Made by a program: the position numbers and the translations under genes. Under the pieces are notes generated by a model, which was given only the letters and a program-made list of their open reading frames with translations, was not told the origin of the DNA and made no database searches. From positions 1 to 64,000 of IMG/VR virus record IMGVR_UViG_2548876794_000003: DNA of 64,000 nt; one strand, given 5' to 3'. Origin of the DNA: a virus (taxonomy: Duplodnaviria > Caudoviricetes). Positions 19,508 to 64,000 of the stretch are shown here, piece by piece. The first letter of the stretch is position 1. The number at the start of each line of letters is the position of its first letter.

Positions 19508-19867
19508 TTATGTGTAGTTGACAACAAGAGCCATTTTTCCGATGGAACGACTGTATTCAATCATCCCTCTTGTGCCAGGACTTTTTCCGTCCCAAAAACA
19601 AACAACTGCATCGCTTCTATTCGCCATTTCTCGGTTACGAATATGACCTGCAGCGTTCCCATGCTTGCTCCAGTCAGCAGGCATGATATGTAGTTTTAAA
19701 TTGTTCTTTCGTGCAAAACGTTCGCCCGTACGATCTGCTCCCCTAGCATGGCCAGAGATTATTTCTACTTGGCTATGGTCAAGATGGCGAATCATATTTG
19801 AAATAATACTATCTAACATGGCGTAGTCTGTGAAAGTTCTACTGCCAGCTATAACAAGCCGAAACAT
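19508..19867 (-). CDS. SLOG-family (DUF2493/YspA-like) protein
   Basis: IAGSR.F.DY, IISG.ARGAD..GE, PADW..HG.AAG.IRN.EMA, FWDGKS.GT..MI. Confidence 0.9.
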   Translation of the reverse strand: MFRLVIAGSRTFTDYAMLDSIISNMIRHLDHSQVEIISGHARGADRTGERFARKNNLKLHIMPADWSKHGNAAGHIRNREMANRSDAVVCFWDGKSPGTRGMIEYSRSIGKMALVVNYT

Positions 19868-19988
19868 TCCTATCACCTCCTCTAATTTAATTCGCTAAAG
19901 TAGGCGTTCATTGGCGAGATGCAACCCAAACTCGTGTTTTGCACCCCTAAAAAACAAGAAAACTGCCGAAGCAGCCTTCTTGTCAGAT

Positions 19989-20093
19989 AAAAAAGGCGAT
20001 CTCCCATAAAGGAAATCGCCTTAAAACTAGGTTGACTAGACCATAGCTCGGTATAGTAAAAGACATTTTGTATCTATTACAATACACAACTCT
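19989..20093 (-). ncRNA. Stand-alone small RNA (about 105 nt), putative trans-antisense regulator
   Basis: Promoter TTGACT(20128-20123)-18-TATACT(20104-20099); terminator AAGGCGAT...ATCGCCTT-TTTT; no SD; two segments complementary to leaders at 56171-56197 and 58497-58509. Confidence 0.6.
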
Positions 20094-20136
20094 ATTTGAG
20101 TATAATGGCTGAACAATAGAAAAGTCAATCCTTCAG

Positions 20137-20427
20137 TTAAGCGACAATAGCAATGATTTCTGATTGTCGGATAACTAGATAAGTTACGCCATCGTATTGG
20201 ACAGGTGAACCAGCGAATGGTTCAAAGACGATTACGTCATCTTTTTTAACGTCTAACGGTTTTGTTACACCGTTATTTAGTAAGAAGCCTGTTCCTACCT
20301 CTACTACTTTTGCTAATTGAGATTTTTGCTTTGCCGAATCTGGCAATACAATAAGCGAAGATTTCTTTTCTTCTTCCTCCACTTCCATCACTTTGATTAC
20401 TAATTTATCTCCTAATACTTTAAGCAT
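20137..20427 (-). CDS. groES: Co-chaperonin GroES
   Basis: LGDKLVI, IVLPDSAKQK, VVEVGTG, PLDVK..D...F..FAG, YLVIRQSEIIA; start reassigned to 20427. Confidence 0.93.
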   Translation of the reverse strand: MLKVLGDKLVIKVMEVEEEEKKSSLIVLPDSAKQKSQLAKVVEVGTGFLLNNGVTKPLDVKKDDVIVFEPFAGSPVQYDGVTYLVIRQSEIIAIVA

Positions 20428-37507: not shown

Positions 37508-38485
37508 TTATTCTACCCCTGCTTTCTCTTCCGCTTCGATACGGTTTAATAATTCATTTGCAATACCAGCGTATAGCGTATGGATTGCTTTATCATGAGT
37601 GTCTGTTTCATGATGTGAAATACCAACACGAGAGTAACGTTTTAATCGTTCGCGGTAAGGAACAACAGAGTTAAATAAATTGTGTTCTCCAAATGTTTCA
37701 GCAGCATCTTGTAGGATGCGTTCATCAACTTTACTGTCTCGTTTTAGAATTACAGGCAAGATACCAATAATATCTGCTTCGGCATCATATTCGTCAATAA
37801 GCTCTTGTAAGTAGCCAACGAAGTCTTTCGCACCATCTAATGACCAGTCTTGTGTTTGGAGAACAACAAGAAGATAGTTCGATGCATAAAGCGCTGAATC
37901 GGTAATGATAGAAAGTGTTGGTGGAACATCAATGAATACAAAATCATATGCTCCGCTTACTCTATCTAATAAATCTTTTAAGTGAGTAACGCGATCAGTG
38001 TAATCTGGGAAAACACCTTCTAAATATCGAGAATAGTAACGGAAATCACTATAGCTTGGAATAATATCTAAGTTGTCAATAATTGGTGTGATGATACTTT
38101 GTAGATCTTGGTTTTGAATGGCCGTCATTAACGTGCCATCGTATGTAATGCTATCTACAGGTTCTTCAACCGATTCCTTAACTTGATTAATTTCTTTAAG
38201 AGATAGTTTTACACGAGATGCGTCGAAGTCATCTTCGCCTTCATGTTTAGCACGTTCAGCAGCAATCTTCGCATCTAAAACTTGGTCAAGTTTATCTTGA
38301 ATCATAAGCTCATGTTCATGTAAGTGACGAGTTTTCATAAGAAGTGAAGTTGCATTTGCTTGCGGATCCTGGTCAACAATTAAAACTCGTTTGCCCATTT
38401 TCGCTAATTCGTAAGCAATCATAACGGTGTTGGTAGTCTTGCCAACGCCACCTTTGATGTTACCGAATGTGATAGTAGTAGTCAT
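37508..38485 (-). CDS. parA: ParA Walker-type partition ATPase
   Basis: GNIKGGVGKTT, VLIVDQDPQANAT, YDFVFIDVPP; no N-terminal HTH (type Ib-like). Confidence 0.95.
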   Translation of the reverse strand: MTTTITFGNIKGGVGKTTNTVMIAYELAKMGKRVLIVDQDPQANATSLLMKTRHLHEHELMIQDKLDQVLDAKIAAERAKHEGEDDFDASRVKLSLKEINQVKESVEEPVDSITYDGTLMTAIQNQDLQSIITPIIDNLDIIPSYSDFRYYSRYLEGVFPDYTDRVTHLKDLLDRVSGAYDFVFIDVPPTLSIITDSALYASNYLLVVLQTQDWSLDGAKDFVGYLQELIDEYDAEADIIGILPVILKRDSKVDERILQDAAETFGEHNLFNSVVPYRERLKRYSRVGISHHETDTHDKAIHTLYAGIANELLNRIEAEEKAGVE

Positions 38486-38525
38486 TTTAAAAGCTCCTTT
38501 GAGTGTGTATTGTATTCAGTTTTCA

Positions 38526-38615
38526 ATGTATGCATGTATGCAAGTATGCGATGTTTTTTGTTTCATCGTATGTGAGCATACATATATAATAATATACTCG
38601 CATACTTACTTGCAA
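38526..38615. repeat. GCATAC-type repeats upstream of parA (operator/centromere)
   Basis: gtatgcatgtatgcaagtatgc...gcatacat...ctcgcatacttacttgc. Confidence 0.65.
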
Positions 38616-38709
38616 TAACTACTTAGTAAATAAATGTATAATCGTACTGAAAAGTAGTAAAAACGTTGAAAATCAGAATAACAGATACAACTCTATAGTC
38701 TATATATGA

Positions 38710-48116: not shown

Positions 48117-48665
48117 AACAAGACCACTCCATTCTTTGTTAGTTTAATGCGTTTGTTAGTTATTGTTGGTTTCATAATTGTCTTCGCCCCTTATTGAATT
48201 TTGTTTTAAAAACATGTGAAAATTGTTTGGCAAAATATAATGTCAAATTACTGTGTGACTTACGCACACGATTAAGACAGTAACCATTGATCGCTAATGT
48301 CAAAGTTATTCGACTTCGACACCAGTACATTAAATCAACTATCTATTACACATAGTTTTTCCATGCTCAATATGTCAATAAGTGCAATGCGAAGATGATG
48401 TAGCTTCCTTACGAATAGTAAACAGCCTTTCATCTGCATTCGTCTCCCTAAATCTGGTGCGTCAAAAAACTGATGTATAGAGATATACCTGCATATCTAT
48501 AAAATAAGATATTTATATACGAGTATATTTGCATACATATGACACTGCATACTTTTAACATCGTATATGAATATACAAGAAGTATTGCATGTCTTTGATA
48601 TTGATTTGTAATTTAAGCTATTGCCTTTCTGTGATACATCTTTTCTATTATGTATTCAAGCACTG

Positions 48666-48919: not shown

Positions 48920-50175
48920 TACACATATGCAAATAACATTGTATGCAAGCATACATTGAACACTGTAGCATTGCATACCATTCTATGTGTATACCCATAT
49001 GTCTGCATACTTTGTTGCATGTAGAACAGCATACGGATAAAACAGAATACTCGCATACGAATAACGTAGCATACTATTCTATGTGTATGTACACATGCAA
49101 GCATACAATTCTACTTATATGACGATATACGAGCATACAAGCATACTTTTCTATTTGTATATTTGCATACGAATAATATCGCATACTTATATACCATGTC
49201 GAGCGCATACGAAATTAAATGTATACCTTGTTATTAGCATGCACGTATACTCGCAGACAAGTAACAACGCAACATCGCATAGGAACATACAAATAACATA
49301 TAGACATTGCAACATGGCATGCCTGTATAAGAATAACAATGCAACATCATATGCAGATATACGAATCAAAAGATAACATGGTATATCTGCATACAAGCAT
49401 ACATATATACTTTAGACATCGCATGCACATATATGAATAACATCGTGACATTGTAACATAGCATGTGGATATACGAATATATTCATGACATCGCACACTA
49501 ATATGCTTACATACAAATAACAATGCGACATCGTATATCAACATACATTTTCGGCCGCATATTATGTTATTTGAATACAGATATACTTGCATACTCATAA
49601 AACGGTATACCAATAACATAGCAACAAAGCATACACATATACTCGTATGCAGATAACATTGTATATGAGCGTCATCACATACAAGTAACACAACATACTT
49701 TTAACATGGTATGCGAACAAACATCACATGCATATATACTATGTCACTCACATACCTACATGCAGATATACAAATTACATCGCATATTATGTTGCTGTGT
49801 CTCATTGTTACTTGTTACATCATATACGAATATACTTGCATGCTATGTTACTTGCATATCAGCATACATATATATAGATAACATCATATACTTGTGACGC
49901 AACATACTGATAACATGCCATACTTATGACATTGTATATTTGTGACGTAGCAACATCGCATTCGAATATACCCACATACATATAACAACATGACATCGCA
50001 CACAAACATACAAATATGCCCGCATATAAATATATTCCTAACATCGTATGCTTATATACAAACCAATAGAGTAGGGGAGTCGCATACAAGTAACATTACA
50101 TACACATAACATGGCATACATGACCGTTATATAAGTGAGCGTCTCCAACTTGCATACAAATAACATCGCATACAA
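48920..50175. repeat. About 1.25-kb degenerate 8-bp-periodic array (GCATACAA/GTAACATC/GCAACATC-type units), putative partition centromere
   Basis: Runs such as gcagacaa gtaacaac gcaacatc gcatagga acatacaa ataacata and gcatacaa ataacatc gcatacaa; no SD-supported ORFs. Confidence 0.8.
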
Positions 50176-50226
50176 AAGTGAACATATAAAAAGCGTACCC
50201 GGTAAAAGGTACGCCTGTTGATTAGT

Positions 50227-50736: not shown

Positions 50737-50787
50737 ATCATCTTCCCCTTTGCTCGTTTGATAGTTTAATTATAAAGCAAGGGACAA

Positions 50788-55143: not shown

Positions 55144-55314
55144 GATAAGTTATCTCCCTTTACCTCGGCTACATTGCGACTTATGAGGATCTTATATATT
55201 TGTATTAGTGTGATGACGCCAGAAAGCAATGAACGTATGCCATTCACATACGAGATAGTTTAATGACATATCCAGGTCTATGTATGTGGGAGCCGAAGCC
55301 CCCGATATTACAGG

Positions 55315-56154
55315 TTAGAAGCGGAAGCCGTTACCAGCTTTTCCACTGTTGCCGCCAAAGAATCCCATGACTTTGTTTTTAGCATGTGTCATACGTTGTT
55401 TCGCAACTTGGATGTCACGATCTTCACGCACTTGTTTTGCTAAACGTTGTGCTTCCTCGGTAGTAGAGTTTACGACAGCCCCGCCTAAGTCGGACCCCGC
55501 TTTCGATACCGTAGCGGTAAGATTCGCAGTAATCCCTACAACGGACTTTGACACAGGTGTTACAATGCTATTTACTGCAAAGTTAACTGTGTTATTGATG
55601 CCATGTCCTGTAGCGGTAATACTATTTGCTGTGAAGCGACCAAAACCTTTTACGCGACGGTAGTTCTTCATCTTCGCAAATTCTCGCTCTGATACGTCAG
55701 CCATAACAACGATAGGGTGGCCTGTCTCGTTATCAAAACCAACGCTTGTCACAGTGACACGTAGTTTACGCTCAACAAATTCCTTAAATGAATCACGTTG
55801 TTTGATGTTAGCGAACTCTGCAGTCAGTTCTGGGTGCGTTAATTTACCGGCTTTACGTTGTTCAGCACCGTAATCTAAATAGTCTTCGTCTTGTTGAATC
55901 AATGACTCTACACGATGCTGTTCTTCGATACTTGCTTCTAGTCCGAGCATAGTACGTTCGAATTCATCTGTTTCATCAATAACCTCGATGATTTTCATTT
56001 CAAGCATTTTGTTCATCATTTCGTTTTGCTGTTGTTCAGTGGTATTACCACGTTTAGCTAGGAAGTCGCGTACGTCTTGTACGACGTGACGGTTCCCTCT
56101 GAAAAAGATTGGTTGTGAGTTTAAATAGTCGAATGTTGTGTTAATTAAGGCCAT
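55315..56154 (-). CDS. Hypothetical protein; candidate target of the 20-kb sRNA
   Basis: SD GAAGGAG, 279 aa. Confidence 0.75.
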   Translation of the reverse strand: MALINTTFDYLNSQPIFFRGNRHVVQDVRDFLAKRGNTTEQQQNEMMNKMLEMKIIEVIDETDEFERTMLGLEASIEEQHRVESLIQQDEDYLDYGAEQRKAGKLTHPELTAEFANIKQRDSFKEFVERKLRVTVTSVGFDNETGHPIVVMADVSEREFAKMKNYRRVKGFGRFTANSITATGHGINNTVNFAVNSIVTPVSKSVVGITANLTATVSKAGSDLGGAVVNSTTEEAQRLAKQVREDRDIQVAKQRMTHAKNKVMGFFGGNSGKAGNGFRF

Positions 56155-56215
56155 GATAATTGGCTCCTTCCAAAATGTGTTTTACTATACCGAGTTAGTT
56201 GAGTTGTGTTCCGCG

Positions 56216-58211: not shown

Positions 58212-58481
58212 CTACCCAAAGAAGGCTTGCATATCTTCAACTGCCTTCATTAACTTACGTGAAGATCGCGCGCGATTTATTACTTCAATACCTGTTGTTA
58301 AATCAATGAAGCGTACATCTTGTTTCGCAAACTTCATCACTTTCTTGATTAGGTCCTTTACTTCGTCTGCGCCTAAGCACACTTGCATTTCTGAATTTGG
58401 TACGCATACGTGATATACGTCTAGCTTTGTACCATGGTTTGAATAGGGGTTAGATGCTTTATAGCCTTTTACTGTAATCAT
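58212..58481 (-). CDS. Hypothetical protein; candidate target of the 20-kb sRNA
   Basis: SD AGGAGGT. Confidence 0.7.
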   Translation of the reverse strand: MITVKGYKASNPYSNHGTKLDVYHVCVPNSEMQVCLGADEVKDLIKKVMKFAKQDVRFIDLTTGIEVINRARSSRKLMKAVEDMQAFFG

Positions 58482-58734
58482 TTGATTACCTCCTGTGAGT
58501 TGTGTATTGGTTTGTTGTAGTCAGCAACATGGCCAGTCAGTCACGACCAGCCTAATTAACCGTCCGAAAACGTGTGAGTGCTCCTACCCGCGAAGCGGAG
58601 ATTGTTCCGCAAGCAAAGCACTCGGCAATGTTAGTTCATATAGTGGACTAAGCTATATGCTGTTGATTTGGTTTGTCATCATCAGATGCAGGGGAACCAC
58701 CTACTGCATGACTGAGTTGCCCCAGTTTCGACCA

Positions 58735-59261: not shown

Positions 59262-61541
59262 TTAGAATCCGAATAAATCGTCGTCATCTTCATCTTCATC
59301 ATCTAACTCAGCTAGTAACGCTGCTTTACGATCTTCTAAAGTTTCTGCTGCTTCTACAGTTTCTTCTTCGTTATCAGTTGCATCGTCACCAAATAAATCA
59401 TCATTACTGTCATCAGAAACTTCATCTTCGTCATCTGTAGCGAATAGTTCTTCATCGTCTGCAGAGATTTCGTCAGCTTCTTTTGTTTCTTTCTTGCTAG
59501 ATTTGAAGCGGTCTTTAATCATTGCTTTGTTTTCATCTGATTCAGCGATGATGTCGATGATGTTTTCTTCTGCATCACCTACAACTTGAATCACGATACC
59601 AACGTTTGCGTAACCTTTGTTTTTAGAGAATACTGCTTGTACTAAACGAACTTTCTTCATTGAAGCTGGTTCAGTTGTACCATTGAATACGCCATTACGT
59701 TGTTCATCGTTTGATACATTTGAGCTGTATGTGCTAACAGGTAACACTAATGCTGCTTTATTTTCGTCAGCACTTACATCCCAGATAGCAGGGATTGTTT
59801 GGCGATTCTTGTTATCCATGTTTGTTGTATAAAGCTCTTTGCCAGCTTTGAATGTAGCTAATAATTTAGCAACGTTTTCTGTAGCGTATTTAGTGATGTT
59901 GCCTTCTTCATCTTGTGTGTACATTGAATCTTCTTTGAAGTAAGAGCTATCACCTTGTAAGAATAAGATACCTTCTGGTGCTGTTTCGATAGAGCGTTCA
60001 ATGATTTCTTGTGCTTTATCTTGAATGTTACGTTTTGCTACGATACGGAATTTCTGTTCGCCATCTTCATCTAATTCAATTGATTCTTGAATTTCGAATA
60101 CATATTCACCTTCTGGTAAGAAGTTTACGAAGTATGGGTTGAAGCCTTTTTCGTTGAATGTCACAACGTCACCATTTTGGTATGGTAGTTCCTCAACGTT
60201 TGGCGCGATGAATAGTTCATCTTCTGTTACGAATGAAGCTTTGTAGCCTTCAAGGTCAGTTGATTCGTTGTGGATCATTTCAGCGTATAGTAATTGTTCC
60301 TCTGCGAATAGGGCACTGAAAGCAGATGACATTGTGTTTGATTTGTTATCTTCACCATAACGAAGGTCGCCAATTTGACGAGTGATTAATGCTAATTTCG
60401 CTGCATCTACACCAAGTTGAGTTGCTTTTAAACGTACGGCAGCTTTCATGAATTCAGTTAATGGTTTGTATTTTTTAGATACACGAGCACGTACTTCCAT
60501 TGCTTCGTCAGTATCAGAATCAACTAATTGTAATTCATATTTTGTTTCATCGCGTTGAGCACGTTCAATTGCATCGAATTGAGTTAATGTTGATTGTACA
60601 TATGAAGTGAACTCTGGGTTCTCACTTACTACTGCTGCAGCTTCGATAACCTCTGATTTAATGAATGTTGCTTCACGAGCTGTTTCATCAAGGTCGATTA
60701 ATGCATTGTAGATTTCAGTAAGGCTGTATTTCTTGAACTGTTGTTTCAAGTCAGTGAAGATAGCTTTACCTTTTTTATCGTAGTCTAGTTCATCTCGGTA
60801 GAATAATGATACGCGGCTACCAGCTGTTTCTGCATTATCACTTGCGATAGTTAAGAACTGCTCAGTCATTTTTTCTTTGTATTCCGCTTTCATTTCATCA
60901 GTGAATAGCAGTTGTACTTTTACTGAACCTTTGTTAATAGATGCTACTTTATATGCTTTTGATGGGCTTGCGATTACTGATACTTCGTAAGCTTTTTTGA
61001 ATGCGTCAATGTGACGTTGCATATCAATATCGAATACTAAGTCAACATCTGCTAATAATTCGATGATTGTTTTGTCTGTTGCTGATTTGAAGTCGAAGTG
61101 TTCTAACGTTTTCAAGATAGCTTCACGATCTGCGACGTTAAGTTCTGCTTGCTCTACGATTACACCAGAAGCATTAACGAATGATGTTTTCGTACGTTTG
61201 ATAGCTTTGTATTTAGTGATTGTTGGTACAGTGTTATCTTTGTTGAAGATTTCGCCAAGAACACGACGAGTTTCTTCTGTTGCTACAGTGTATGCTTCTT
61301 CTGTGATGCCACGTAATGCTGCGCCGAATTTTAATGTTTCTGCTGCTGCTTTAAGTGCTTGTGACGCGTTTGCTACGATACCGATACCAGCAACTTTAGC
61401 TGATGTTTGTTTAACCATTGTTAATGCTAAGTTCTCTGCAGCGTAACCGAATTTTGATGCACGTTGAGCTTGAACTTCTTTGATGTTTTTAACGAATGAT
61501 GTAGCTGCGAATTGGTTGAATTTGTTGTTTGTGAATGTCAT
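59262..61541 (-). CDS. Probable C-terminal subunit of a split RdRP/YonO-family RNA polymerase
   Basis: GIGIVANA (RdRP LG.I.N-like) and QRHIDAFKK (AVD..K-like) motifs; adjacent to the catalytic gene; SD AGGAGG; acidic tail. Confidence 0.55.
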   Translation of the reverse strand: MTFTNNKFNQFAATSFVKNIKEVQAQRASKFGYAAENLALTMVKQTSAKVAGIGIVANASQALKAAAETLKFGAALRGITEEAYTVATEETRRVLGEIFNKDNTVPTITKYKAIKRTKTSFVNASGVIVEQAELNVADREAILKTLEHFDFKSATDKTIIELLADVDLVFDIDMQRHIDAFKKAYEVSVIASPSKAYKVASINKGSVKVQLLFTDEMKAEYKEKMTEQFLTIASDNAETAGSRVSLFYRDELDYDKKGKAIFTDLKQQFKKYSLTEIYNALIDLDETAREATFIKSEVIEAAAVVSENPEFTSYVQSTLTQFDAIERAQRDETKYELQLVDSDTDEAMEVRARVSKKYKPLTEFMKAAVRLKATQLGVDAAKLALITRQIGDLRYGEDNKSNTMSSAFSALFAEEQLLYAEMIHNESTDLEGYKASFVTEDELFIAPNVEELPYQNGDVVTFNEKGFNPYFVNFLPEGEYVFEIQESIELDEDGEQKFRIVAKRNIQDKAQEIIERSIETAPEGILFLQGDSSYFKEDSMYTQDEEGNITKYATENVAKLLATFKAGKELYTTNMDNKNRQTIPAIWDVSADENKAALVLPVSTYSSNVSNDEQRNGVFNGTTEPASMKKVRLVQAVFSKNKGYANVGIVIQVVGDAEENIIDIIAESDENKAMIKDRFKSSKKETKEADEISADDEELFATDDEDEVSDDSNDDLFGDDATDNEEETVEAAETLEDRKAALLAELDDEDEDDDDLFGF

Positions 61542-61622
61542 GATAAATTTCCTCCTATGCTAAACCGTTTTGATTTAGCTCCATAAATAATTTTTTAGTT
61601 TAATGTTTGTTTTATAAATAAT

Positions 61623-61652
61623 AAAAAGCCACACAACTGACAGTCATGCGGC
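61623..61652 (-). terminator. Intrinsic terminator between the two polymerase genes
   Basis: GCCGCATGAC-TGTCA-GTTGTGTGGC-TTTTT. Confidence 0.6.
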
Positions 61653-61700
61653 AGGTCCATAATACTGAGTGACAATGAAATGATGTTGCTAAACTTACTA

Positions 61701-64000
61701 TTAAAGTAAATCTGTAGTGCTGTGAGCTTCTGCTTGTGTTGCTGATAATGCTTCGACAATACGTTGGTCAAATACTAATGTAAAACCATCCATATCCCAG
61801 TCAGAACCAGACATGATTAAGTTCAACGTTGGGTGGAATGGAAGCATAACAATACCATCTGATAATGCTTTCATGTACGTTTTAGCGCCTTTCATTAATT
61901 CTTTAACAACTGCTACTGGTAACGTTTTGCCGTCTTTGTTTTTACGACCAAGTAATGCTGCTGCTTTATCTTCGATGCGTGATAAGATTTCATCACGAGA
62001 TACAACGTTTGCAATATGGAAGTCACGAGCACCTGGTTTTGGTGAACGATAGAATACTAATTGCATTGTGATATTTCCTTCTGCATCTACTAGGTCATGC
62101 TTACGAGCATAGCTTTCTGCAGCTGGTGAATACACTTCATCTGTTCCTAATACACCTAGACGGTAAGCCGCTTCTGCGTTACGAAGGTCCTCGAATGCTT
62201 GACGAACAACACGTTTCTTCATTACACCTTTACGAATTTGCATATATGAAGGTTTGATTCCCTCTACTGATTCGTATTTAGCTGTTTGACTTTCAATACC
62301 AGCTTCTACTAAATCGTTGTAATCTTTTAATGCTTTTAAGTGAGCCGCTTCGTGTTGTGTTAAACCTTCTTCATCTGTGTTGAAGTCGATGAATTTAAAA
62401 TTAGCAATATCATCTGGTGTGTTGAATAGTAGAGCAGGTAAGTCGTATAAACCAGACGCATAAGTACCAGCTACAACGTCACGAGATTTGCTATCAAGGT
62501 CACGATTTGTAACGTTGATTACATCTCCTAAAATAGAGTTAACAATAGATGATTCTTTTTCGAATGCGAAACGAGGAGCAGCACTACGCATAATACCTGT
62601 GTAGTAAAGGCTATCTCCTGTTAATTGTGAAGCAGATACTTTAGGATCACGCAATGCTTGATTGCCTTCTTCATCTGTTTCTGTACCGATTGCCGCACTT
62701 AATGCACGACGAGCTGTTTCAGCGCCTAATGTTTCGATTAATAATGGAGCTTGGTCTTGGTTTTCTACAGCCTTAGTTAATGCTTCTTTTTTATCCATAC
62801 CTTCTGCTACGAATTGTTTTGCTAAATCTGCAACACGCATATCTTTCATGTTTTGTACTGCATCTTCTGTTAATAGAGATTGTCCCATTTGACCAGAGTG
62901 ATTCGTTGTTTGTTTAGCAGGGTGAGAAAATGTCATAACTGGCATTGTTGTTTTTGTACCTTCACCGTATGAAACAGGAACTTTCATTTCATCTAGTGTT
63001 GCGATGTAAGTAGGGATAGCTGTTTTATCTACTACTTTTTGAATGATAACTGCGTCATATCCTTTGAAGTATGATTTGATACCATTGAATGCTTTCTTTT
63101 CATTAGCATCTGTTGCACGAGCTTCCATCCATTCTTCACGAGTGATGTATTTAATTTTGTATCCTTGGAATACTAAAGCGTGGATGTATGCTGCAATTGT
63201 TCTAGGCATGAATAGTACGCTTGCTACTTTGTTTACGCCATCGAAACGAGCTTGCATTAATTCACCCACAAAGTGTTGAGGTTTGAACATTGCGCTACCA
63301 CCAATTGAAATTGAAGCATTGTTGATAGATTTCGCTACATATTCAGCACTTACGATTTCGCCACCATCTTTCAGTACGCCATAACGTTTTGTTAAATCAA
63401 TCATTGGAGAAACATCATCTCCATTGAATTTCGCTAAATCTACACCAGCTGTGTGTGTTTGAGATTCACGAGTTGCGATATTGATTAAATCTGCTTTGCT
63501 TGCTTCACGATCTTTGAATTGATCAACGAAGTATTGATTCATGCCGTTTGTTGCAGCATTTGTGATTTCGCGGAATTTTGCTTTACCTTCTTCTGTATCT
63601 GGTAAGGCAATCATTAATAAGCGTTTTACTTTCGCCATACCTGGAGTGTATTGGAATCCGTATAAACGAAGCGCGCCTAATTTATTGAATTCTTCAATTG
63701 TTAATGAAGTGTTGTTTAATAGTGAACGATATGTGTTACGAGAACGAGTGTATAATTCCACTGAACCGTTATCTGCGAATACTACATATAAGCCAGTTTC
63801 TAAAGCGTCTAATGAAGATTTGTCGAATTTAACTTCTAATAAACCGTTAAGGAAGTTCTCAACTTTCATTTCACCAAGATCTGTCATGATTGTTGTTTCT
63901 CTTTGTAATGCTTGACCTTCTAAGCCTTCTACCATTTCGATATAGCGATCTGTAGAAACACCTGTTTTTGTAGATGCTACAGAAGTGCTTACTTGGTGTA
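61701..64000 (-). CDS. RdRP/YonO-family two-barrel RNA polymerase, catalytic subunit (5' end outside the window)
   Basis: KDGGEIVS, MQARFDGVNK, GVLGTDEV, LVFYRSP, GIVMLP, MSGSDWDMDG in the order of the RdRP/YonO family; frame stays open to nt 64000. Confidence 0.82.
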   Translation of the reverse strand, partial: HQVSTSVASTKTGVSTDRYIEMVEGLEGQALQRETTIMTDLGEMKVENFLNGLLEVKFDKSSLDALETGLYVVFADNGSVELYTRSRNTYRSLLNNTSLTIEEFNKLGALRLYGFQYTPGMAKVKRLLMIALPDTEEGKAKFREITNAATNGMNQYFVDQFKDREASKADLINIATRESQTHTAGVDLAKFNGDDVSPMIDLTKRYGVLKDGGEIVSAEYVAKSINNASISIGGSAMFKPQHFVGELMQARFDGVNKVASVLFMPRTIAAYIHALVFQGYKIKYITREEWMEARATDANEKKAFNGIKSYFKGYDAVIIQKVVDKTAIPTYIATLDEMKVPVSYGEGTKTTMPVMTFSHPAKQTTNHSGQMGQSLLTEDAVQNMKDMRVADLAKQFVAEGMDKKEALTKAVENQDQAPLLIETLGAETARRALSAAIGTETDEEGNQALRDPKVSASQLTGDSLYYTGIMRSAAPRFAFEKESSIVNSILGDVINVTNRDLDSKSRDVVAGTYASGLYDLPALLFNTPDDIANFKFIDFNTDEEGLTQHEAAHLKALKDYNDLVEAGIESQTAKYESVEGIKPSYMQIRKGVMKKRVVRQAFEDLRNAEAAYRLGVLGTDEVYSPAAESYARKHDLVDAEGNITMQLVFYRSPKPGARDFHIANVVSRDEILSRIEDKAAALLGRKNKDGKTLPVAVVKELMKGAKTYMKALSDGIVMLPFHPTLNLIMSGSDWDMDGFTLVFDQRIVEALSATQAEAHSTTDLL

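Follow-up and report, generated by a model that had tools for sequence, protein, structure and literature searches.

A candidate trans-acting antisense RNA behind groES in a large phage, with two seeds and three predicted target leaders

Analysis of the first 64 kb (64,000 nt, hereafter the window) of a 178,960-bp IMG/VR virus record, the completeness of which is estimated at 78%, revealed a minus-strand unit behind a groES-like gene that, judged from its sequence, stands roughly an even chance of being a trans-acting base-pairing RNA, which would use two seeds to block ribosome loading on three phage targets. Found directly were the sequence elements themselves, a complementarity that is not random, favourable computed energies, target sites predicted to be accessible, and conservation among strains (features are collected in Table 1). 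An earlier note on this DNA had proposed a two-seed minus-strand sRNA with two target genes; statistics, energetics, accessibility and strain conservation speak for that proposal, and a third leader, that of parA, has been added to it here.

The groES-like gene upstream of the unit probably starts at 20427 (MLKVLGDK..., 96 aa, SD AAGGGGG); a 113-aa ORF call would overlap the sigA-like extended -10 promoter of the gene. From the groES stop codon (20137) to the 13-bp terminator there are 115 nt, and because the terminators elsewhere in the genome are found directly 3' of stop codons, about 85 extra nt after groES call for explanation. The minus-strand promoter and intrinsic terminator described in the earlier note are both present. 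The promoter, which is a consensus match only, is among just 10 intergenic matches of at least 10/12 in the 179-kb record, and promoter-like matches are only ~2.7-fold enriched in intergenic DNA. Transcription is predicted to start at G20092, 7 nt past the -10 hexamer, giving an RNA of ~105-108 nt (about 20092 to 19985, minus strand). Since groES has its own promoter, the unit could also arise by read-through as the groES 3' UTR. The second, back-up hairpin coincides with the most variable stretch of the locus. Elsewhere in the window, TTGACA-18-TAGACT (1649-1678, minus) stands ahead of the tRNA gene (1500-1572), with an 18-nt spacer like that of the candidate RNA's promoter.

The predicted fold of the RNA consists of two hairpins and the terminator, in which nt 1-7 and the CAAAA loop stay open (unpaired probability of loop nt 23-27, ~1.0). 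G-U pairs give the minus strand a fold that is 9 kcal/mol more stable than that of the plus strand (-35.1 vs -25.8 kcal/mol), and the RNA body without the terminator is not unusually stable (z = -1.74).

Table 1. Positions of the candidate RNA unit, its parts and its predicted target sites in the window
Feature	Position	Strand	Remark
groES-like gene, upstream, 96-aa form	20137-20427	minus	own sigA-like extended -10 promoter at 20497-20469
sigA-like promoter TTGACT-18-TATACT	-35 20128-20123, -10 20104-20099	minus	10/12 to consensus
5' G/U-rich seed, RNA nt 1-16, GAGUUGUGUAUUGUAA	20077-20092	minus	antisense matches
Central 27-nt seed, RNA nt 23-49	20044-20070	minus	hairpin 1 loop and 3' arm, linker
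Hairpin 1, nt 8-42, loop CAAAA	20051-20085	minus	U-G pair is an A-C mismatch on the other strand
Hairpin 2, nt 44-69	20024-20049	minus	two G-U pairs, hence minus-strand-specific
Intrinsic terminator	stem 20022-19993, with T-run to 19985	minus	13 bp, 4-nt loop
Second, back-up terminator-like hairpin and T-run	19949-19983	minus	13-nt arms, 85% complementary
ParA ATPase gene	37508-38485	minus	weak DUF5388-like protein next
Target site 3, C/A-rich	38501-38515	minus	2 nt 5' of SD of parA (37508-38485)
Target site 1	56171-56197	minus	mRNA leader of 55315-56154; ends 1 nt 5' of SD (56164-56169)
Extra 9-nt C/A-rich site ACACAACUC	56201-56209	minus	same leader as the 27-nt site
Target site 2, C/A-rich	58497-58509	minus	2 nt 5' of SD (58489-58494) of gene 58212-58481

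The centre of the RNA matches the leader of 55315-56154, a conserved gene that belongs to the phage RNA-polymerase module and comes after an RNase H gene. The central 27-mer, read on the minus strand, equals the plus strand at target site 1 at 25 of 27 positions, abutting the SD as the earlier note had it, and the relation is antisense since the target lies on the minus strand. The two mismatches are C-C and C-A, not G-U wobbles, so wobble pairing gives the 27-mer no support. By BLAST, the 27-mer match exceeds chance, with E = 7e-6 in a search of the window and 0.014 in the genome-against-genome comparison. Its two copies are both intergenic, none of 100 shuffles matched, and the net cofold gain at the site is -24.9 kcal/mol. 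The further 9-nt match to the 5' seed that the earlier note counted in this leader is indeed there, but no single colinear antiparallel duplex could take in both this site and the 27-bp helix in the order in which they lie, and the 9-nt match is at best an alternative contact. The string ACACAAC (56127-56133) also occurs at codons 5-8 of the gene, where the 5' seed pairs in the cofold; together with the 27-bp helix, a seed paired there would enclose the RBS in colinear order, and the 7-mer is not significant.

The 5' end of the RNA supplies the other seed. Its first 13 nt (20080-20092, minus) are identical to the plus strand at target site 2 (13/13), and the match is true antisense, as claimed earlier, with gene 58212-58481 on the minus strand; the seed duplex amounts to -20.2 kcal/mol and the net cofold gain to -12.3 kcal/mol. 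Genome-wide, the 13-mer alone is at chance level (E = 0.3), and another 13-nt match is found in sense orientation at 165557-165569; the 13-mer becomes significant only once the search space is limited to translation-initiation regions. The parA leader is a third target found in this analysis, with which the 5' seed pairs over 14 bp with a 1-nt bulge (duplex -18.3 kcal/mol, net gain -11.8 kcal/mol). The element UACAAUACACA-CUC in the parA leader agrees in position with its counterpart in the leader of 58212-58481 and is almost identical to it in sequence, and the two leaders are alike over ~20 nt, SD included. The 9-mer ACACAACTC has three copies in the window, where 0.58 are expected, and no more in the full 179-kb record; all three are at these loci. 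The finding of parA as a third target leader strengthens the reading of the unit as a two-seed antisense RNA. A 10-nt sense copy of the RNA start region (ATAGAGTTGT) was also noticed at 38687-38696 (minus), at the 5' end of the parA upstream region and ~170 nt before the pairable C/A-rich site; taken alone, this copy is at chance level.

Under the RNA hypothesis, the search space comprises the 214 translation-initiation regions of the 179-kb record. RNAduplex across whole leaders was undiscriminating, returning long looped duplexes, and exact-run and seed-only tests were used instead. The longest antisense runs of the RNA body against the 214 regions were 15 nt (55315-56154), 13 nt (58212-58481) and 11 nt (parA), and among 200 shuffles a best run of at least 13 nt was seen in 5 and a second-best run of at least 13 nt in 1. 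The best duplexes of the 16-nt 5' seed were those with the leaders of 58212-58481 and parA, at the energies given above, and neither value was reached by any of 300 shuffled seeds. About 3% of random genomic 16-mers attain the best duplex value, which would correspond to the share of 16-mers expected from the initiation regions themselves. The target sites are predicted to be accessible (mean 8-mer unpaired probability 0.28-0.54 vs transcript medians of 0.04-0.08), and all duplexes end 1-2 nt from the SD, a distance that falls within the 30S footprint. Among the features typical of a trans-encoded sRNA, the unit has a promoter-like site with a terminator, seed complementarity beyond chance, and predicted accessible sites with favourable energy. 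The genome also holds several other dispersed repeats of 21-28 nt with similar E-values, some of them inside genes.

The contigs sharing these non-coding regions (L003-L034) are all ~99% identical. Among nine strains, 0 positions vary in the 127 nt that span the unit between promoter spacer and T-run, against 5 in the adjoining 31 nt (19955-19985), and one of these 5 changes abolishes the stop codon of the 27-codon ORF in strain L010; the promoter hexamers and the terminator are invariant in the nine strains, and a single SNP (20113) falls in the spacer. SNP-free stretches of ~130 nt occur in neighbouring coding DNA as well, and the strain conservation of the unit counts as modest evidence. 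Target sites 1, 2 and 3 are invariant in 13, 11 and 10 strain sequences, respectively, with SNPs just outside them (the nearest to target site 2 is 3 nt outside).

Word-based homologue searches with target 1 and with the polymerase-like gene returned the same species only, and the nearest other relative has 28% protein identity and an unrelated leader. An exhaustive profile search gathered a target 1 family of 59 clusters (~270 aa), the profile of which had no match in Pfam, PHROG or PDB. Members of the family again follow an RNase H gene in the distant relatives L035-L037 (L035/L036 10001-10813, L037 4134-5135), and in L035/L036 they also follow a split polymerase-like gene pair with an SGSDWD(M/F)DG motif. 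The target-1 leaders of these distant relatives are short and unrelated in sequence, and no antisense partner for the leader of L036 (a 164.5-kb contig) was found within the 20.8 kb examined. Neither of the targets 55315-56154 and 58212-58481 matched a Pfam, PHROG or NCBIfam family, the Icd/Ant families included; the AlphaFold models of both ORFans are of low confidence (pLDDT 40 and 49), and a search of the ESM Atlas gave no match for them. Outside the phage, an exact 23-nt copy of the seed, with 30/33 identity to the 56-kb copy, is located at 2364-2395 of L015 (DMYZ01000297.1, from a MAG labelled Prevotella). This copy lies inside the coding region of a DEAD-box helicase, on a contig without other similarity, and resembles a hybrid of the two phage copies; in a 596-Gb collection it is probably a chance match.

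The unit might be a plain groES 3' UTR with a terminator, perhaps stabilising, in which the matches are duplication relics or chance and have no regulatory use. A groES gene with its own promoter needs a terminator, other dispersed short repeats share the genome-versus-genome E-value of the 27-mer, and the 23-mer in the helicase gene of the unrelated Prevotella-labelled contig indicates that such strings can recur functionless. We regard this explanation as rather improbable, as it leaves three independent matches, all antisense, at most 2 nt from an SD and the top three of the 214 initiation regions, together with a unit that is conserved beside variable adjoining non-coding DNA. The lack of significant colinear homology past the 27-mer (p = 0.2) argues against a simple segmental duplication, and an inverted duplication of the 5' region of the target was likewise rejected, colinear homology past the 27-mer not being significant. 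Proteins could instead read the 27-mer and the CAATACACAACTC motif as cis elements, either a DNA operator or an RNA operator or translational enhancer by the SD, with the 20-kb copy as another binding site and no antisense pairing. The likeness of the 58212-58481 and parA leaders and the position of the 20-kb 27-mer as one arm of an imperfect palindrome fit such elements, as does the role of C/A-rich elements beside the SD as translational enhancers in the GcvB literature. On the other hand, at 20 kb the copies point against the direction of local transcription and have no plus-strand gene behind them, the motifs lack palindromic symmetry and only one arm is present at 56 kb, the identity of 24-27 nt extends well past a half-site, neither motif recurs in any other intergenic region of the genome, and k-mer enrichment upstream of genes finds SD words only; taken together, this makes cis elements unlikely.

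The 27-codon ORF without an SD that the earlier note had pointed out does run through the unit, and an open frame spanning it raises the question of a small protein, perhaps a peptide resembling type I toxins or AimX, with a length of 27 aa, or of 34 aa if GTG is the start. A preprint describes small phage regulators that were first read as RNAs and proved to be peptides (bioRxiv 10.1101/2025.11.23.689978). Such a product is very unlikely here: the frame is without an SD in a genome with strong, nearly universal SDs, it passes through the terminator stem and encodes no clean hydrophobic helix, and the loss of its stop codon in strain L010 argues against coding. Measured against a type I toxin-antitoxin system, the unit has no SD and no clean transmembrane helix, and its stop is lost in one strain. 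We give almost no credence to the remaining explanation, in which recombination between the two inverted 27-bp copies flips or mobilises the intervening 36-kb segment. Their inverted arrangement and a length typical of invertase crossover sites would suit this, but neither a serine nor a tyrosine recombinase turned up in the 179-kb record, no rearranged junction was seen at either site among the strain contigs examined, and the matches of the 5' seed are left unexplained.

The record has a GC content of ~38% and strong, Firmicute-like, nearly universal SDs, and the host is probably Gram-positive-like. Near-identical proteins are encoded on a 248,626-bp NCBI contig and on many metagenome contigs from soil and other sources; no relatives were detected among GenBank phages at the DNA or protein level, and IMG/VR held neither a copy of the motif nor a relative of groES. 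Nearly all genes of the window are on the minus strand, among them or beside them TerC, TerF-like and GroES genes, and one gene of the window shows a weak match to a DnaG-primase domain (35.6 bits vs a cut-off of 283.6). Searches of the 179-kb record for a tyrosine integrase, a serine recombinase/resolvase and ParB_N found none. GTATGC-type repeat arrays (38520-38615, 48331-48665, 48999-49082 and 50090-50226) lie beside the parA promoter on both sides and occupy several intergenic regions; they resemble sites of a plasmid-type module such as a centromere, operators or iterons.

The RNA polymerase that the earlier note placed in this region corresponds to two large genes (59262-63998) without a match in Pfam, PHROG, NCBIfam or PDB sequences. 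No family library confirms the assignment; the gene pair contains a DWDMD motif, and its first gene is homologous, motif included, to a gene of a distant relative (E = 2e-16). The sequence TTAAACTA, usually inside CATTAAACTA, has seven copies in the 179-kb record, five of which are intergenic on the minus strand, just upstream of genes (612-619, 48140-48147, 50762-50769, 55256-55263 and 61596-61603); it is a candidate phage-specific promoter or start-site motif. The seed motifs were themselves tried as promoters and rejected, with no acceptable -35/-10 geometry on the other strand and nothing found by the scan at 56 kb.

From the features of the unit we infer its transcription, its pairing in vivo, the sign of its regulation and its biological purpose. 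As a base-pairing regulator, the candidate RNA would be transcribed by the host's sigA RNA polymerase, starting at the unit's promoter, or would form the tail of the groES transcript, or both. Its central 27-nt segment would nucleate at the open CAAAA loop and then form an 8+15-bp duplex with the leader of 55315-56154, and its G/U-rich single-stranded 5' end would pair with the C/A-rich elements before the SDs of 58212-58481 and parA. These duplexes, lying inside the 30S footprint, would block ribosome loading, the long duplex perhaps also being cut by RNase III, and the three proteins would be held down as long as the host polymerase transcribes the RNA. A mechanism of this known, ordinary type is plausible. 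A role as an immunity or plasmid-state switch is an attractive idea, given ParA, the plasmid-like module and the prediction of parA itself as a target. The support for such a role is contextual and comes from ParA with its DUF5388-like partner, the primase-like gene and the repeat arrays.

A bolder proposal is that the RNA serves as the lifestyle switch of a ~249-kb jumbo phage-plasmid and ties lytic silencing to plasmid maintenance by RNA alone; a carrier-state RNA would then repress a gene of the RNA-polymerase module and its small neighbour and tune the partition ATPase ParA. We consider this improbable. Phage sRNAs known to control distant genes of their own phage are few, and for large phages with Gram-positive-like hosts there are almost none. 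Should the unit prove real, it would constitute a compact circuit in which one RNA reaches three leaders through two seeds. It would connect plasmid-type partition to a phage-specific RNA-polymerase module, and would open a way to learn how a very large soil phage that otherwise resists annotation times or silences its programme. Otherwise, it would still be instructive, showing how short dispersed repeats can imitate a regulatory RNA.

Among known systems, the earlier note had named the antisense RNAs C4 of P1/P7 and CI of P4 as precedents, which hold as an analogy in RBS-adjacent pairing and fail as family membership. Like them, the candidate would be a phage sRNA whose short, separate segments pair beside the RBS of the phage's own genes. 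P1 is moreover a plasmid prophage. Full repression of ant requires C4 (PMC8198154, citing Citron and Schuster 1990). C4 is excised from the transcript of the very operon it regulates, with its targets a short way downstream, whereas the candidate unit stands alone behind groES with its own promoter-like site, and its targets are 18, 36 and 38 kb away in other operons. Unlike the C4 case, the two sites for the candidate RNA on one leader are not colinear. In the family searches, none of its targets was recognised as an antirepressor. A cmscan of 19700-20300 with E up to 10 gave no match to Rfam C4, a scan of the whole window at Rfam gathering thresholds returned one tRNA only, and the GibS sRNA (RF04182) was rejected at 33.6 bits vs a gathering threshold of 115.

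GcvB-type multi-target sRNAs reportedly direct a G/U-rich seed against C/A-rich elements upstream of SDs (Sharma et al. 2007). The candidate shares this arrangement, with a G/U-rich single-stranded seed (GAGUUGUGUAUUG) facing C/A-rich elements 5' of the SD in more than one mRNA, and the expected mechanism, a block of 30S loading, would be the same. It differs from GcvB in having no sequence or structure homology to it (no Rfam match), in being phage-encoded with phage targets, and in its probably Gram-positive-like host.

The ncRNA candidates of virulent and jumbo phages, such as ncRNA1/2 of PAK_P3 and the UTR-derived RNAs of phiKZ, were detected experimentally and have no assigned targets (PMC10914365). 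The RNA described here is, unlike those, a prediction from sequence and comes with predicted targets; like them, it is placed where a phage gene ends (3') and could derive from 3' UTR processing.
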